Assembly: GCA_964448685.1 (NCBI GenBank)
Contig: CAYUWR010000011.1
Coordinates: 87,074 to 151,073, forward strand
Source: an uncultured Nitrososphaeria archaeon
GTDB taxonomy: Archaea; Thermoproteota; Nitrososphaeria; JACIWG01
Direction: 5' to 3'
Length of the DNA: 64,000 bases
Shown in pieces: positions 28,143-34,628 of the stretch. The notes beneath the pieces were generated by a model. It did no database searches. It had not been told where the DNA came from and worked only from the letters and a program-made list of their open reading frames with translations. The translations under genes and the position numbers were made by a program. How positions within the stretch are numbered: the first letter of the stretch is position 1; each line of letters starts with the position of its first letter.

Positions 28143-29294
28143 CTATGGTTTAAGCTGCTCCAGACACCTTAAAGCTTCCTCGACCGCACCTCTCTTGCTT
28201 GCCAGACCGAGGTCGTTGCTGGCAACCTCTAGGGCGGCCACGAAGCTGACCGCATCATTTGCCGAAATGGTGCCAAAATGTCCCACCCTCAACATGAGAT
28301 CTCTATATTCGTAGAGCCCCTTCGCCAACTGGATGTTAAATTGGCTCTTCAGTCGAGCATGGAGCTCACCCGCCTTCTTGTCAGGCACATAGAATGCTGT
28401 CACAGTGTTAGCCCTGCAGCCCTGTTCAGCTACAATCTTGAACCCCAAGGCCTCGATGCCTGCCCGTATTCCGTCAGCGATGATCCTGTGCCTAAGCAGC
28501 CTCCTCTCAAGCCCCTCCTCTCTAAGCTCCGAAAGCGCCTCCTTCAACGCAACAATAAGGTTGACCGCGGGTGTGGCGACATAGACGCTAGGATTCTCCA
28601 TCACCTTCCTCCACCTAAGCAGGTCCATATAGTAGGAACGTATCGGCGTCTTCCTATTACTCATCACATCAAGAGCCTTCTTTGACACAACAGCCAGAGA
28701 CAGCCCAGGTGGAGCCGCTATCGCCTTCTGAGAGCCAGTCAAGGCAACATCTATCCCCCATTGATCGAAGAGCAATTCGATTGCACCGACACCGCAGACA
28801 GAGTCTACAATCGTCAAGACACCATGTCTTCTAGCAGCAGACGCCATATCAGCTACAGAGTTCACAACACCTGTGGCAGTGTCAACATGTGTGACAAAGA
28901 GCGCTTTATAGTCGGCACATGACAGCTTCGCGTCAATCTCTTGAAAAGAAGGCGACCTACCGAGCTCGGGCTTAACAAAATCAACTCTTGCACCGTGGAT
29001 GCCAGCGATCGTGCCAAAACGTTCTCCGAAATGACCAGTGTCTACGACCAGAACCCTGTCGTCGGGCTCGATGAGGCTGACGACAACAGCCTCCATCATC
29101 AAGGTTCCAGACCCGGTGAGAATATAGGGCAGCCCTTCCCTCGACTGGAAAAGGTACTTCGTGAGCTCAAGAGCCTCCGAATACGTCTTCACGAATCCTG
29201 GGTCAAGATGTCCAAGCTGAGGAAGACCCATCACATTCAAGACCCTAGAAGAGAGCATAGTTGGACCGGGGATAAGCAATAATTCTTCCTTCAT
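28143..29294 (-). CDS. Class V aminotransferase (alanine-glyoxylate / serine-pyruvate aminotransferase type)
   Basis: It has the N-terminus LLIPGPT and the PLP-lysine motif TGSQKAIAAPPGLS. The ORF is 383 aa. Confidence 0.85.
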   Translation of the reverse strand: MKEELLLIPGPTMLSSRVLNVMGLPQLGHLDPGFVKTYSEALELTKYLFQSREGLPYILTGSGTLMMEAVVVSLIEPDDRVLVVDTGHFGERFGTIAGIHGARVDFVKPELGRSPSFQEIDAKLSCADYKALFVTHVDTATGVVNSVADMASAARRHGVLTIVDSVCGVGAIELLFDQWGIDVALTGSQKAIAAPPGLSLAVVSKKALDVMSNRKTPIRSYYMDLLRWRKVMENPSVYVATPAVNLIVALKEALSELREEGLERRLLRHRIIADGIRAGIEALGFKIVAEQGCRANTVTAFYVPDKKAGELHARLKSQFNIQLAKGLYEYRDLMLRVGHFGTISANDAVSFVAALEVASNDLGLASKRGAVEEALRCLEQLKP

Positions 29295-29368: not shown

Positions 29369-30292
29369 CTAGGAAAGCGTGGTTGTACGTATCTTGACAA
29401 TCTTCTCTAGGACCAGAGCCAACACCAAAGAGACCCCGGCCTGCCCAAACAGGTCCCTCACGTAGGATAAGACCCCGACCGGAAACCCCTTTATGAAGAT
29501 GTTAACGACAAAATAGGTGGTAGCCATAACAAACCCTCCAAGAGAGAGAAAGAAGACCTTCATCAAAAGAGGCCTATCCCTGCCGAAACCTGCCACCAAC
29601 CCCTCAAAACCGTGAGCAGGGATCGAGACATAAAATCTTGGGTAGCCAAGAAAGATGTCTGCGGCAACACTTCCAACGACCCCGACCGACGCACTCACCC
29701 TCCATCCAAAGAGCAAACCTGACAGAAATATGATCGAGTCACCAATATGAGTATAGCCGCCGGTAGGTGAAGGAACCAGGCTGCCCGTTCCCACGGTGAG
29801 GACTGCGGTGAGCGCACTAAAGATACTTGTTGCAGCAAGCTCTCTTGTCGTAAACGGCTTAAGGAGCGGCCTCCATCCCCTAGCCTTTAAAGAACAGTAG
29901 GTTGCCACAGCCGCCGCCAACACACCCAAAGACGTGAAGAATTCACAGAGAATGGAAGAAGCCAGCAACCCCGAAAGATCATAGCAGACCGTGATCAGCC
30001 CAAGGGCCACCAGTAGAATCCCTCCATAACCTGCCGCCTTATAGTAACATCGATCAGCCAACATAATCAGAGCCAACCCAACACCGGCAAAGAGAAGGAC
30101 AAACGTCAGATAGCTTGATAGCAACATCTTCAGAAACTCCTCCATCGACAACCTGACGAAGACACTTTCAAACCCTCTTAGCCTAAGGGTCACAAGCACA
30201 TGCAAAATCGAGGAGACAACATACAATAGCACTGACGAAGTGAACAGAGCAGAGATCCTGTTCGCCATCACGCTGGTGAACGACGCAAACAT
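29369..30292 (-). CDS. Polytopic membrane protein; C-terminal half resembles an ECF-transporter S component
   Basis: The segment TGGYTHIGDSIIFLSGLLFGWRVSASVGVVGSVAADIFLGYP...HGFEGLVAGFG resembles the conserved core of S components. The N-terminal ~150 aa add extra TM helices. The gene is upstream of, and co-oriented with, the aminotransferase. Confidence 0.5.
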   Translation of the reverse strand: MFASFTSVMANRISALFTSSVLLYVVSSILHVLVTLRLRGFESVFVRLSMEEFLKMLLSSYLTFVLLFAGVGLALIMLADRCYYKAAGYGGILLVALGLITVCYDLSGLLASSILCEFFTSLGVLAAAVATYCSLKARGWRPLLKPFTTRELAATSIFSALTAVLTVGTGSLVPSPTGGYTHIGDSIIFLSGLLFGWRVSASVGVVGSVAADIFLGYPRFYVSIPAHGFEGLVAGFGRDRPLLMKVFFLSLGGFVMATTYFVVNIFIKGFPVGVLSYVRDLFGQAGVSLVLALVLEKIVKIRTTTLS

Positions 30293-30305
30293 ATATAAGC
30301 AGGTG

Positions 30306-30338
30306 CCTATATATAGTCCTATGTTTAGATATCATAGG
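30306..30338. promoter_or_regulatory. Divergent promoter region with a palindromic TATA-like element and an inverted repeat CCTATG-N9-CATAGG
   Basis: CCTATATATAG lies at 30306-30316 and contains the perfect palindrome CTATATATAG. The inverted repeat is CCTATG (30318-30323) paired with CATAGG (30333-30338). It sits immediately upstream of the ThrC-like/PadR ORF, in the 50-nt gap facing the divergent membrane-protein gene. Confidence 0.35.
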
Positions 30339-30342
30339 TCTC

Positions 30343-31746
30343 ATACTAAAATGCACAAGCTGCGGTTCAGTCAGCGAATTCGACATCAACAGGAAAGCAT
30401 GTGAGAGGTGCGGCAACGGCCTCAGCGTGGAAGCAGAACACACCCACACATCGGAGACCTCAGGAAACCTGAATGGGATATGGAAGCACATGTGGACACT
30501 TCCAAGAATAGGCGAAAGATTCCGAATCACATTGGGCGAAGGCAACACGACCTTACATGAAGGCAGTAGAATCAAGAGGGAGATAAGAGTCGACAGACTC
30601 TGGTTCAAGGATGAGACCGTGGAGCCAACAGGGTCTTATCTGGACAGAAGTTCAGCCCTATTTGCTTCAACAGCACTACAGATTGGATGCACAAAGATAA
30701 TCACCTATTCCACAGGAAACCTCGGGGCCTCACTAGCAGCCTACTCTTCTAAGGCTGGACTAAGGATGCAAGCCCACATAAGGCCCGGCATCGACCTTGG
30801 AAAACTCTATCAGATGATCGCATACGGCGCCCAAGTCACAATCGCCCAGAACCTAAGAGAAAAGAGCAGGGAAGTACAAGGCACAGCAATAGCCACCGAA
30901 TATGATCCCATAGTAAACGAGGCCAAGAAGACGATCATGCTGGAGATATTTTGTCAGCTCAGCCAAGACCTACCAGACTACATGATACTTCCAATGGGAC
31001 AAGGCGGACTAGCCTATTCAACCTATAAGATGTTAAAGGAGCTCAAAACGACCGGAGCGTCAGAAGCAAAGACGAAGATCGTTGGCGTGCAACCAGAAGG
31101 ATGCGCGCCCATAGTCAAGGCATTCGAGAAGGGTCTAGAACATGTTGAATCAGACAGCAGATTCAAGACCAGAGTATACGACCTGAACGTTGCAGAACCC
31201 AAGTTTGGAAACGCAGCACTGAAGGCAATAAGAGAAACAGAGGGGCTCGCGGTCTCCGTGGACGAAGAGGAAATATTAGATGCGACAAGCCTCCTAGCAG
31301 AAAACGAGGGCATCCTCGCCGAATCAGCAGCCAGCCTTGCCATCGCAGGGCTGATAAAGCTGAAGAAGGCGGGAGAAATAAGAGGCGATGAGAAGGTAGT
31401 CTGCGTCATAACTGGAAGCGGCCTAAAAGACCCTAAGGTGATGAAGAAGATAGCGGTCAGAAAGTCAAACCTGAGCCCCCTGGTAGAGGACTTGAGTGGC
31501 AACAGGCCACTGGGAGACACAAAGCTGGCCATTCTTAAGCTGCTGTCTGAAAGAGGAATGTATGGCTACCAGCTGTGGAAGCAGGTAAAGGAGAGGGACA
31601 AGATCAACGTTGAGATACCTACCATCTATCAGCATCTATCTGAACTGATGAAATTAGGCTACGTCAAGAGGACCGAATCAAAGACCATCTTGGGGAGGAG
31701 AAGGGAATATTACTCGCTAACCGAAAAAGGTGAAGCTATAGCATAG
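30343..31746 (+). CDS. Threonine-synthase-like PLP-fold protein lacking the catalytic lysine, fused to a C-terminal PadR-type winged-helix domain
   Basis: It is colinear with archaeal ThrC: zinc ribbon KCTSCG...CERCG, then GEGNTTL, STGNLGASLAAY and ITGSGLKDP. However, the canonical PTGSFKDRG reads PTGSYLDRS, and GNAGN reads GQGGL. The C-terminus LAILKLLSERGMYGYQLWKQV...EYYSLTEKGE is PadR-like. The first canonical start is GTG 30427. The zinc ribbon is in frame upstream, with ATA at 30343 where ThrC homologues have Met. Confidence 0.75.
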   Translation: MLKCTSCGSVSEFDINRKACERCGNGLSVEAEHTHTSETSGNLNGIWKHMWTLPRIGERFRITLGEGNTTLHEGSRIKREIRVDRLWFKDETVEPTGSYLDRSSALFASTALQIGCTKIITYSTGNLGASLAAYSSKAGLRMQAHIRPGIDLGKLYQMIAYGAQVTIAQNLREKSREVQGTAIATEYDPIVNEAKKTIMLEIFCQLSQDLPDYMILPMGQGGLAYSTYKMLKELKTTGASEAKTKIVGVQPEGCAPIVKAFEKGLEHVESDSRFKTRVYDLNVAEPKFGNAALKAIRETEGLAVSVDEEEILDATSLLAENEGILAESAASLAIAGLIKLKKAGEIRGDEKVVCVITGSGLKDPKVMKKIAVRKSNLSPLVEDLSGNRPLGDTKLAILKLLSERGMYGYQLWKQVKERDKINVEIPTIYQHLSELMKLGYVKRTESKTILGRRREYYSLTEKGEAIA

Positions 31747-31984
31747 TTAAGATCGGACAGCTACAAGAAGTTTCCTACATAGTCACATATAGGCTTCGGC
31801 TAGGCCATCGATTTTGGAGCATTTCCCAACGAGACCGGCCCACTATATGCATATCCAATCTTTGACGGCGCATCCGCAGACACCCTTTTTTTCCGGAGGC
31901 CCCAATTGAGCTCTGCAAGCGCCTCCAATCATTTCTTCGACCACGACATCGAATTCGCTACATTCAATTAGAAAGTGTATGTTT

Positions 31985-32250
31985 CAAATCCTAACACCTT
32001 TCAGGTGTTGGCTTCCTGCTTCTGTGACCAGACTCGATCCCGCATGCGCCCACGGCGGAGGTCTCAGCAAATGAGACCGTTTCAGGTCAGCCCGTGTGGA
32101 AGGGGGGTTACGGAGGTCTTGGTCTCCACAGGCGCAACTTCAGCCTACCCGATGCCTAGCAAGGAAGAAGTTTCCATGAGAGAAGATAAGAAGGTTTCGT
32201 TCGCTCTCATCCCACCCATAAACGGTATGGGGGTTTCCCGTTCGCAATTT
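31985..32250. ncRNA. Candidate structured non-coding RNA, unclassified (weak RNase P-like motifs if read on the minus strand)
   Basis: This GC-rich block has AT-rich flanks and no credible ORF. It contains many perfect local helices: 31993-31998/32004-32009, 32060-32065/32073-32078, 32095-32100/32125-32130, 32176-32182/32204-32210 and 32215-32220/32226-32231. It also has long-range pairings 32046-32050/32131-32135 and 32012-32019/32159-32167. On the minus strand it reads GGGUAGGCUG (32141-32150) and ACAGAA (32020-32025). Confidence 0.3.
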
Positions 32251-32682
32251 TAAGGATCTATCTTCTCTTTCTCCAATGTAACCTATGATATTATACATTG
32301 TTTTAGTCAGCGAGCTAGCAAAACCCTTGATGTCATCATATAATTCTCTTGGTTTCAGATACACATAATTGTGAACCAGAATGTTTCTTAAGCCTACTGC
32401 CCTCTTAAATTGTTCGCTCAATGTCTCGTCTATTATTCCATTCTCCAATAATATAGATCCAACTTCCTTTTAAGATCTTGGAGTCCTCCACCTCATGTAA
32501 GCGATTATGGCCTCGCTTACGTCTATCGTAGCCTCTATTGCGACCTGCAAGTTGCGTTCGCTGGCGTCTATTAAATCTTCGCTTCTAATAAATCGCTCGA
32601 AGTCAACACCTGAAATCTCTTGGAGTCTTCTCGCAGCCCTCCAAAACCTGTCTATTCTCGCCTTAACCCGCGGAGCAGGCAT
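32140..32682 (-). pseudogene. hepT: HepT (DUF86) HEPN-family toxin interrupted by a single in-frame TAA
   Basis: The ORFs 32470..32682 and 32140..32448 are in the same frame and are separated only by TAA at 32470-32472 (...RWRTPRS*KEVGSILLENGIIDE...). The RX4HXY motif GLRNILVHNY lies in the downstream part. The 3' tail beyond about 32253 is probably a fortuitous read-through into the GC-rich region. Confidence 0.7.
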
Positions 32683-33088
32683 CTCTTATCTCCTTCACAG
32701 CAATCTCATAGAATATGTTAAAAACGTATTCGAAGTCGAGGTATTCATCGACCGCGTTTATAAAATCGTCCATGTACCTATCATAATCTCTACAATAGAG
32801 AATTATCCCGCCACTGTAGGCCTCATACTTGATGACTGTATCCGCTATATTCAAAGGGATCACGTCAACGTGAACACCTAACAGGGATTCAACGTCGGAC
32901 ATGAGATTCAAAGCCTTGTCAAGAGAATTGTTCGAATTCGTAAACTTGACAGCAACGTCCACGTCACTATAATCTCTAGCACTGCCCGCCGCCCTAGAGC
33001 CAAAAAGTAGAACATAAACACAATCAAGACTGCCAGAGGCTCCGACAACAGCATCTCTTATTTCCTCCAGACTAAGCATATGGTCCAA
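32663..33088 (-). CDS. mntA: MNT-type minimal nucleotidyltransferase (antitoxin partner of HepT)
   Basis: It has the motif LFGSRAAGSARDYSDVDVAV (GSxxxG...DxD). It overlaps the hepT start by 20 nt, which is the usual MNT-HepT operon layout. Confidence 0.8.
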   Translation of the reverse strand: MDHMLSLEEIRDAVVGASGSLDCVYVLLFGSRAAGSARDYSDVDVAVKFTNSNNSLDKALNLMSDVESLLGVHVDVIPLNIADTVIKYEAYSGGIILYCRDYDRYMDDFINAVDEYLDFEYVFNIFYEIAVKEIRDACSAG

Positions 33089-33605: not shown

Positions 33606-34628
33606 GTGCTTTTTGACCCAAGACCTAAGTCATCCAAGAACGAGCTGTTTGATAGGGGAAATGAGCTTAAAGAGTTAGATAGAGCCAGTGATCGCAGGTT
33701 TCCTCTTATACTTGTCCTAGGTGTTAGGAGGATTGGGAAAACCAGTCTTGTCAGGACTTTCCTTGAAGAAAAAAGTGGAGTCTACATAGATCTTAGGGGT
33801 GTCATAAGGAGATCTGAGCTTTACGAGAGGGTAAGCGACGGCGTCTACAGCTCTCTCGGACGGATGAGAAGACTTTTGGAAGGAATTAGAGGAATCAGCT
33901 TGACAGGCCCAGGTGTTGAGATAAGATGGAAAGGATATGATTCAATAAGCCTCTTGGGTCTTCTTCAGGAGGTCAACAAGAGAGAGGAAAAGTTCATCGC
34001 TGTGATAGATGAGGCACAGTCTCTTAAGCCTCCCCTTTCAGCTGAGCTTAGAGACATAATCGCATACTCCTATGACAACCTGAATAACATTACTTTGATT
34101 GTCTCAGGGTCTGAAGTAGGATTGTTAAGAAATTTTCTTGGCTTGGATAGCCCATCTTCTCCCCTCTATGGAAGATATTCTTATGAGATCCATGTTGAAC
34201 GATTTTCTGAGGAGATATCGAGGGAATTCCTGATAAAGGGATTCAGGGAAGAGAAGATTGAGCCGCCTTATGAGGCGATAGATCAGGCCATTAAGCTGTT
34301 CGATGGAATAGTTGGGTGGCTTGTCTTCTTTGGCAGATCATATATTGAAGGATTAAAAGATATTATGAGAATAGCTGACATGGCTGTTGAACTAGCTTTA
34401 GAGGAGCTGAATAAACTGAGTTCGAGGGAAAAGATGATCCTAAAGGCTATGGCAGGTGGTGCAAAGACTTGGTCTGACGTGAGGAGTTCCATCGCAGAAA
34501 AAGGAGTTGTAGTTCCAAAATCAACACTTTCAAGGATCATTAACAAGCTTGAAATGATGAGTATAGTAGAAAATTACAAGTTCCTGGACCCAGTCTACAG
34601 AATGGCATGCGAGAGACTGAGACCTTAG
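33606..34628 (+). CDS. Archaeal ATPase (Arch_ATPase/PF01637-like AAA) with C-terminal DUF234-type winged helix
   Basis: It has the N-terminus FDRGNELKEL, Walker A GVRRIGKTSL and Walker B VIDEAQ. The C-terminus, MILKAMAGGAKTWSDV..., is wHTH-like. Confidence 0.8.
   Translation: MLFDPRPKSSKNELFDRGNELKELDRASDRRFPLILVLGVRRIGKTSLVRTFLEEKSGVYIDLRGVIRRSELYERVSDGVYSSLGRMRRLLEGIRGISLTGPGVEIRWKGYDSISLLGLLQEVNKREEKFIAVIDEAQSLKPPLSAELRDIIAYSYDNLNNITLIVSGSEVGLLRNFLGLDSPSSPLYGRYSYEIHVERFSEEISREFLIKGFREEKIEPPYEAIDQAIKLFDGIVGWLVFFGRSYIEGLKDIMRIADMAVELALEELNKLSSREKMILKAMAGGAKTWSDVRSSIAEKGVVVPKSTLSRIINKLEMMSIVENYKFLDPVYRMACERLRP

Follow-up and report, generated by a model that had tools for sequence, protein, structure and literature searches.

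The DNA analysed here, a stretch of 64 000 nt on contig CAYUWR010000011.1 (hereafter the window), comes from an uncultured Nitrososphaeria archaeon. On its plus strand it carries a gene for a threonine-synthase-like (ThrC-like) protein fused to a PadR-type DNA-binding domain, called the regulator gene below in anticipation of the function proposed for it. A gene for the S component of an energy-coupling factor (ECF) transporter lies directly upstream and is divergent, and a short palindrome is situated between the two. The features of the regulator gene, in window coordinates, are the following.

30331..31746, plus strand: ThrC-like/PadR fusion gene (reading frame, Pfam, NCBIfam, alignment to a 96%-identical homologue)
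30352..30411, plus strand: four-cysteine zinc ribbon CxxC...CxxC (KCTSCG...CERCG); C4, C7, C20 and C23 do not vary in alignment A1
30526..31416, plus strand: fold-type-II pyridoxal 5'-phosphate (PLP) domain, threonine-synthase-like, proposed ligand sensor (PF00291, PDB, Foldseek)
30640..30642, plus strand: leucine codon CTG at the Schiff-base lysine position, residue 100 (alignments to solved threonine synthases)
30994..31011, plus strand: glycine-rich loop MGQGGL, counterpart of the VGNAGN loop for the PLP phosphate, with G219 and G221 conserved throughout the family
31531..31737, plus strand: C-terminal PadR-type winged helix-turn-helix (PF03551; PadR structures 5dym and 1xma in the PDB)

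Architecture and start of the fusion gene

The plus-strand frame 30343–31746 runs without interruption between a stop near 30277 and the stop codon at 31744–31746, and encodes the zinc ribbon, the PALP domain and the PadR winged helix together. The ribbon, which the original prediction had named, has its cysteine codons in frame at 30352, 30361, 30400 and 30409; the same ribbon is present in non-fused, lysine-bearing archaeal ThrC-like enzymes. The PALP domain is full-length (residues 62–358, PF00291 E = 3.1e-58) and is matched over its whole extent by threonine synthases of the PDB (2zsj, E = 4e-45; 6cgq; 1uim). Foldseek comparison of an AlphaFold2 (AF2) model of the protein (pLDDT 86, pTM 0.76) with threonine synthases gives target-normalised template-modelling scores of 0.84–0.86 and a root mean square deviation of about 2.5 Å. 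Together these matches bear out the colinearity with archaeal threonine synthase that had been proposed.

The PadR winged helix (residues 397–465, PF03551 E = 2.2e-13, with a score of 50.5 bits where the Pfam gathering cutoff is 27) follows in the same frame, also as predicted, with no stop or frame break before it. It is placed at the extreme C-terminus, behind a domain of 390 residues, and in the AF2 model its wing is followed by a helix of six residues only. The recognition helix, IPTIYQHLSEL, conforms to the family pattern ..[IV]YQHL.EL, in which YQHL is nearly invariant. The Pfam search of the protein returned no GntR match; the DNA-binding domain is of the PadR type.

The start of the gene is less straightforward. 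The original prediction began the open reading frame (ORF) at 30343, where the codon is ATA and not a start codon. The first canonical start in frame is GTG 30427; no ATG, GTG or TTG precedes it after the upstream stop, so the zinc ribbon is encoded upstream of it. A 96%-identical relative (P0001, locus L001) has a protein that begins MIDLTLKC, and in the alignment the ATG of this gene falls on ATC at 30331 of the window. From this alignment, the window copy appears to have lost its canonical start (ATC for ATG). It must use a near-cognate start, or begin at GTG 30427 without the zinc ribbon, or be in incipient decay. At codon 33 the window has GTG and L001 has ATA. The first 32 codons differ from L001 by seven non-synonymous and three synonymous changes, with a ratio of non-synonymous to synonymous rates (dN/dS) of 0.59, a value that rests on these 10 substitutions. 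The start-codon change and the N-terminal dN/dS could mean a start shifted downstream of the zinc ribbon, or early decay. Between the window and L001, dN/dS is 0.17 overall, 0.13 in the PALP part and 0.11 in the PadR part: the gene is under purifying selection.

These data bear on the possibility that the window copy is decaying to a pseudogene. The change of ATG to ATC at 30331, with no canonical start before GTG 30427, would fit such a decay, as would the N-terminal dN/dS and the adjacent genomic damage, namely a 495 bp insertion (31755–32249) and a HepT gene split relative to L001. They have to be set against a frame that is intact over 1.4 kb, the presence of all four zinc-ribbon cysteines, a dN/dS of 0.11–0.13 over the rest of the gene and intact promoter elements (see below); a start at ATC, ATA or GTG 30427 would still yield a PALP + PadR protein. 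We regard decay as improbable.

Loss of the Schiff-base lysine

The segment PTGSYLDRS of the window protein aligns on PTGSFKDRG of solved threonine synthases, and Leu100 falls at the position of K61 of the Thermus thermophilus enzyme. Residue 100 therefore replaces the Schiff-base lysine, and structure–sequence alignments thus agree with the lysine-to-leucine change originally read from the CTG codon. The best 120 homologues among 5.8 billion proteins all contain PALP and PadR domains, and none of them has lysine in this column. When one genome per GTDB species was scanned with a profile, 418 stretches that code for a relative emerged; the 80 best loci are all full-length fusions. They belong to Nitrososphaeria and other Thermoproteota metagenome-assembled genomes (MAGs), to Brockarchaeota, Bathyarchaeia and Methanomethylicia, and to the Asgard groups Thor-, Hermod-, Prometheo-, Borr- and Jordarchaeia. 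In the set of 86 related genomic loci used below, the column contains leucine (38), isoleucine (34), valine (4), methionine (4), phenylalanine (3), asparagine, threonine and arginine (1 each), and lysine in no locus.

An exhaustive HMM (hidden Markov model) search of 1.84 billion representatives revealed a gradient of relatives leading from the fusions to ordinary zinc-ribbon ThrC-like enzymes. When representatives were clustered at 50 per cent identity, the lysine was kept in 60 of 60 non-fused proteins and missing from 74 of 76 fusions (two keep it), so that its presence or absence separates the two groups almost perfectly. Judged from these alignments, the absence of the lysine is a family trait and not a sequencing error; a survey of homologues for this fusion and this loss had been suggested originally.

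Among the columns at least 80 per cent conserved in the lysine-bearing set, K61 alone is essentially lost in the fusions (from 100 to 3 per cent). N87, which contacts O3' of PLP, is retained in 84 per cent of fusions, T317, which contacts the pyridine N1, in 96 per cent, F60 in 91 per cent, D62 and R63 in 100 per cent, and the loop glycines in 95–100 per cent; the cofactor-contact residues are the best-conserved part of the pocket. A compensating lysine elsewhere in the PALP domain was sought and rejected: no new invariant lysine appears, and all invariant lysines are common to the canonical enzymes. From the loss of the lysine, the low dN/dS and the kept pocket it follows that the protein is selected for something other than internal-aldimine catalysis.

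The glycine-rich loop is a weaker indicator. PMGQGGL aligns on PVGNAGN of solved threonine synthases, and the replacement of GNAGN by GQGGL had been counted as a second altered PLP-binding element. The change is real relative to the bacterial enzymes, but it is not diagnostic: in the nearest lysine-bearing archaeal relatives the loop reads VG[NGST]G.., and GNAGN is not conserved there either. Since these relatives are equally divergent, GQGGL is weak evidence for a loss of PLP-phosphate binding, and we have discarded it as a sign of such a loss.

Annotation would make the protein an enzyme. Its best NCBIfam matches are threonine synthase models, with NF004170 (PRK05638, 'threonine synthase') first and covering residues 2–465 on profile positions 2–436 of 442, PadR region included; 'threonine synthase' is also the name given to many MAG homologues in their sources. 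A genuine threonine synthase or other PLP enzyme, in which the winged helix is accessory or moonlighting, would in addition account for the preserved fold and the many pocket residues kept. All scores, however, lie below the curated cutoffs (NF004170 267 of 421 bits, NF006050 208 of 303, TIGR00260 133 of 167), and the Schiff-base lysine is missing in about 97 per cent of the fusions, where hydrophobic residues take its place and no other lysine compensates for it. Threonine-pathway genes are not conserved nearby: the flanks of the 86 loci contain no thr, pdxS, pdxT or pdxK gene as a conserved neighbour, and no canonical thrC paralogue was found within the window or the flanks of the loci. Moreover, a true member of NF004170 that scores 799.6 bits, P0228 of Thermococcus chitonophagus (CP015193.1; L206:6001-7326), itself has arginine at the lysine position, and the model thus appears to name lysine-less proteins threonine synthase. 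We conclude that the window protein is very probably not a threonine synthase, and a genuine enzyme of any PLP-dependent kind seems to us very improbable.

Two side observations concern the same scaffold. P0228 has a faint PadR domain and is encoded between an aCPSF1-like beta-CASP gene and a gene of the amino-acid-kinase fold, with no ECF gene or palindrome. Proteins of about 610–630 aa such as P0206 and P0260 combine a lysine-bearing zinc-ribbon ThrC-like part with the allosteric (dimerisation) domain of LeuA (PF08502) at the C-terminus, a different and apparently catalytic fusion built on this scaffold.

The divergent ECF gene and the palindrome

The intergenic region and the divergent gene contain three further features.

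29369..30292, minus strand: ECF-transporter S component of the HmpT/PdxU2 type, predicted regulated target (PF07155 E = 1.2e-17; PDB 4hzu_S)
30291..30299, no strand assigned: conserved ATATATAAG element at a fixed spacing of 6 nt from the palindrome; the minus strand reads TTATATAT
30306..30317, no strand assigned: candidate operator CCTATATATAGT, one mismatch from the 12 bp family palindrome CCTATATATAGG

An iterative HMM search of all ORFs of the loci found an ECF homologue in 51 of the 86, upstream of the regulator and divergent in 47. It is the only neighbour conserved across phyla, on the Asgard as well as the TACK side; the pairing occurs in Thorarchaeota, Hermodarchaeota, Promethearchaeota, Bathyarchaeia, Nitrososphaeria and Methanomethylicia. 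All other recurrent neighbours reflect lineage-specific synteny, such as desulfoferrodoxin, rubrerythrin, GNAT and seryl-tRNA synthetase genes in Thorarchaeota, or GH18 and deoxyhypusine synthase genes in Brockarchaeota-like MAGs.

The S component matches 4hzu_S with E = 1.9e-6 from the single sequence and with E = 5.5e-30, over the full length, from a profile of the family. For this profile 4hzu_S is the sole solved match: the next S component has E = 0.07, and RibU, FolT, ThiT and BioY are not matched. 4hzu_S is HmpT/PdxU2 of Lactobacillus brevis, originally predicted as a hydroxymethylpyrimidine carrier; its substrate has been identified as pyridoxamine (PMC4860826). The B6 transporters listed for family PF07155 are PdxU and PdxU2 (PMC9997740). 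The ORF of the window has a hydrophobic N-terminal extension of about 130 residues (29873–30268, minus strand) without a Pfam match, common only to L001/L002 and L025; most homologues have 160–260 aa. The annotated ATG at 30292 overlaps the TATA-like element described below, which makes ATG 30268 the likelier start, and the true ECF start is probably this codon, Met9 of the called ORF.

Alignment of the regions upstream of the regulators yields an almost invariant arrangement, ATATATAAG-N6-CCTATATATAGG (consensus of 72 loci). The exact 12 bp palindrome is present in 45 of 85 loci, nearly always in one copy per locus. With one mismatch allowed, 65 sites occur in 1.11 Mb, and 58 of these lie within 120 nt upstream of the zinc ribbon of the regulator (58 of 84 loci); the reversed-sequence control gave one. 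In the two loci where the ECF gene is away from the regulator start (L025 and L068), the palindrome precedes the ECF gene by 30–33 nt and is missing upstream of the regulator. This distribution ties the palindrome to the regulator/ECF gene pair and not to promoters in general. In the window, CCTATATATAGT at 30306–30317 is the only site within one mismatch of CCTATATATAGG in 64 kb, and it lies 14 nt upstream of the aligned start codon of the regulator.

The ATATATAAG/TTATATAT element is likely to be the TATA box of a leaderless ECF transcript. Read on the minus strand, ATATATAA (30291–30298) is centred 26.5 nt from the ECF ATG at 30268, a spacing as expected for an archaeal TATA box. The element is possibly also a third half-site. 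The promoter elements are intact in the window copy.

The original prediction had pointed to repeats at 30306–30338 for binding. Of these, 30306–30317 is conserved in other genomes, together with 30291–30299, and the rest is not. An inverted repeat at 30315–30341 (AGTCCTATG/CATAGGTCT) was rejected as an operator, as it is already broken in the 96%-identical L001. A scan of metagenome contigs for the extended palindrome GCCTATATATAGGC was unproductive, 119 of the 120 matches listed being chance occurrences without an adjoining regulator or ECF gene.

Extra palindromes were noted upstream of GNAT acetyltransferase genes in two loci (L043:12845-12856 and L071:15506-15517), one with a single mismatch and one exact; that of L043 also precedes a divergent DJ-1/PfpI gene by 68 nt. 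In 17 loci, most of them of Thorarchaeota, the regulator is followed by a GNAT gene.

Beyond the ECF gene the window contains one further gene that may belong to the same transcript.

28143..29294, minus strand: class-V aminotransferase gene, on the strand of the ECF gene and 74 bp downstream of it

The two genes may share a transcript, in the window lineage only; the aminotransferase gene is not conserved beside the regulator in other lineages. Its NCBIfam matches (BhcA best with 219 bits, pyridoxamine-pyruvate transaminase third with 182 bits) are all far below the cutoffs; an action on imported pyridoxamine would be speculation.

On the other side, the insertion of about 495 bp follows directly on the regulator stop and is absent from L001, which is otherwise 94–97 per cent identical. 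The HepT toxin gene (32140–32682) is split into ORFs of 102 and 70 aa in the window, whereas L001 has it whole (143 aa); the gene for the MNT-type antitoxin paired with it (32663–33088) is intact. The region downstream is rich in defence and toxin–antitoxin genes, including an archaeal ATPase_2 gene at 33606–34628 of the window, and PIN and more HEPN/MNT pairs in the syntenic stretch L001:11979-13598. The regulator thus seems to border on a variable genomic island.

Proposed function and relation to known regulators

The gene most probably encodes a transcription factor in which a lysine-less ThrC-like sensor is joined to a PadR winged helix, and which is probably B6-sensing, autoregulated and in control of B6 uptake; we hold this reading as a whole with somewhat better than even confidence. 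The ThrC-derived fold-type-II domain, having lost the Schiff-base lysine and kept the non-covalent PLP contacts, would act as a small-molecule sensor, and its ligand would bind reversibly because the aldimine cannot form. The winged helix would bind the palindrome CCTATATATAGG, probably as a dimer joined via the ThrC-like domain. As the palindrome overlaps the core promoters of the regulator gene and of the divergent gene, the bound protein would block one or both. Occupancy would repress both genes and so tune uptake through the HmpT/PdxU2-type S component to the cellular B6 state, with the ligand, by analogy with other vitamin regulators, presumably acting as co-repressor. We infer DNA binding at the palindrome, dimerisation, the sign of regulation and the nature of the ligand from the comparisons above. 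The link between regulator, operator and target is the firmer part, and we consider it likely. The original idea of a pseudoenzyme fused to a DNA-binding domain as a ligand-sensing regulator is thus supported by the lysine loss, the selection on the gene, the palindrome and the divergent gene.

For the ligand itself the odds are about even that it is PLP or another B6 vitamer. A B6 vitamer is the most likely candidate because what is conserved in the pocket is its set of cofactor contacts and because the predicted target resembles a pyridoxamine transporter. The same regulator and operator might instead respond to threonine, homoserine, O-phosphohomoserine, serine, or a pyrimidine or thiamine precursor, the S component importing that or a related compound. 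The parent enzyme binds O-phosphohomoserine, and the [ST]xGN loop, which binds the substrate carboxylate in fold-type II enzymes, is largely kept in the fusions. O-phosphohomoserine is disfavoured, however, because the positions aligned with N154, S155 and R160 of the T. thermophilus enzyme, which we take to bind the phosphate of the substrate analogue in the 1V7C structure, are occupied by T, E and V when the window protein is aligned to 1uim. The class-V aminotransferase just downstream of the ECF gene in the window would also suit a ligand other than B6. ECF S components mostly carry vitamins and vitamin precursors, which argues for a vitamer, as does the only close solved homologue of the transporter, since it binds pyridoxamine (PMC4860826). 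In the pocket, the consensus of the S components departs from HmpT at three positions, with D for E41, K for H84 and E for Q87; the aspartate and lysine at the E41 and H84 positions, pocket residues according to PMC4860826, are chemically related and not identical. These differences, and the first prediction of HmpT as a hydroxymethylpyrimidine carrier (PMC4860826), mean that the transported molecule need not be B6. On balance, a ligand outside the B6 group appears rather unlikely.

Besides these pocket differences, several points weigh against the proposed B6 regulator. The mechanism is a candidate one, drawn, ligand included, from sequence comparison. Being TATA-like, the palindrome might serve as a specialised element of the promoter instead of an operator, and the two extra copies adjoin GNAT genes without an obvious B6 link. 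The canonical start is missing from the window copy, which may be poorly expressed, or may be started at GTG 30427 without the zinc ribbon. In the subclade of the window, characterised by PTGSY[LFM]DR[SC] and MGEGGL, the ECF gene is adjacent in only four of 27 non-redundant loci, so that the regulon may not be the same in all lineages; 20 of the 27 keep the palindrome with up to two mismatches. In the larger subclade (PTG[SA]F[ILVM]DRG) the corresponding numbers are 36 of 55 loci with an adjacent ECF gene, seven more with the gene elsewhere in the locus, and 45 of 55 with the palindrome (up to two mismatches). A third subclade, with arginine or rarely lysine at the lysine position, is without palindrome and without ECF gene; it takes in Thermococcus members of PRK05638, for example T. 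chitonophagus WP_068578498.1, and may do something else. Co-variation of recognition helix and operator found no support, as the Thermococcus-type subclade, without the palindrome, still keeps YQHL.

The closest system in function is bacterial PdxR of the MocR family, whose regulons include pdxST, pdxK and the transporter gene pdxU (PMC5320631). Both systems take the fold of a PLP-dependent enzyme as the effector part of a transcription factor with a winged helix. In the PdxR regulons, genes of B6 synthesis and salvage are accompanied by ECF S components of the pdxU type (PMC5320631). PdxR operators are repeated boxes bound by dimers, to which the palindrome described here, known from comparative genomics, may be likened. 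In each of the structural features compared, the window protein differs from the MocR/PdxR proteins, and it is not one of them. They have an N-terminal GntR winged helix and a fold-type-I, AAT-like domain, in contrast to the C-terminal PadR domain and the type II, ThrC-like domain of the window family. Characterised MocR proteins also retain and use the Schiff-base lysine, which the window family lacks. The window family is archaeal, and the MocR family is absent from Archaea (PMC5320631). The parallel with MocR/PdxR that had been drawn earlier may hold as a functional analogy, with a different DNA-binding family, a different position of that domain, another PLP fold and a different state of the lysine.

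The other relatives each share a part of the design. With the archaeal zinc-ribbon threonine synthase (EC 4.2.3.1; PRK08197, PRK05638; 2ZSJ, 1UIM, 6CGQ) the window protein has in common the colinear zinc ribbon and PALP domain and the motifs EGNT, PTGS[FY], [ST]TGN and TGxGLKDP; it differs in the missing Schiff-base lysine, the altered N154/S155/R160 positions, the extra PadR domain, the sub-cutoff scores and a genomic context of vitamin transport, not threonine biosynthesis. PadR repressors (PF03551; 5DYM, 1XMA) have the same type of winged helix, and a palindromic operator and autoregulation are predicted here as well. A canonical PadR protein is small, with an N-terminal winged helix and a C-terminal dimerisation helix, whereas in the window protein the winged helix is appended to a 390-residue enzyme-like domain that presumably provides dimerisation and ligand binding.

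Archaeal vitamin regulators include ThiR, which consists of a ThiN-like domain and a DNA-binding domain. RbkR (riboflavin kinase and winged helix, PMC5397151) and BirA likewise fuse an enzyme-derived vitamin or cofactor domain to a DNA-binding domain, and regulators of this type act on the transport or biosynthesis genes of their own vitamin by way of palindromic operators that overlap promoters. All of them differ from the window family in vitamin, enzyme fold and DNA-binding family; RbkR and BirA have also kept their catalytic activity, whereas the catalytic residue is gone here. The general kind, a regulator with an enzyme fold, is known; what our data support as new is an archaeal, lysine-less sensor of a PLP-enzyme fold combined with a winged helix from different parts. 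In the literature searched (including PMC9997740, PMC5320631, PMC5397151 and PMC2872624) we came across no paper that describes the fusion as a regulator. The earlier statement that no member had been described holds for that literature and not for the databases, as the architecture is built into NCBIfam NF004170.

To our knowledge, no B6-responsive regulator is known in Archaea. The family described here has about an even chance of being the first such family of archaeal transcription factors, with a palindrome nearly invariant from Asgard to TACK, convergent with MocR/PdxR and of independent origin. If so, it would fill the archaeal gap left by the absence of MocR/PdxR (PMC5320631), with an operator motif and a target gene at hand, and would offer a clean natural case of an enzyme turned into a sensor through the loss of one residue. 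It would also lend genomic-context support to the assignment of archaeal B6 transporters, a poorly studied area (PMC9997740). The lysine-less proteins further point to a systematic annotation error that affects hundreds of archaeal 'threonine synthase' proteins as well as NF004170. This misannotation would inflate the predicted threonine prototrophy in reconstructions of Asgard archaea, Bathyarchaeia and other uncultured archaea.

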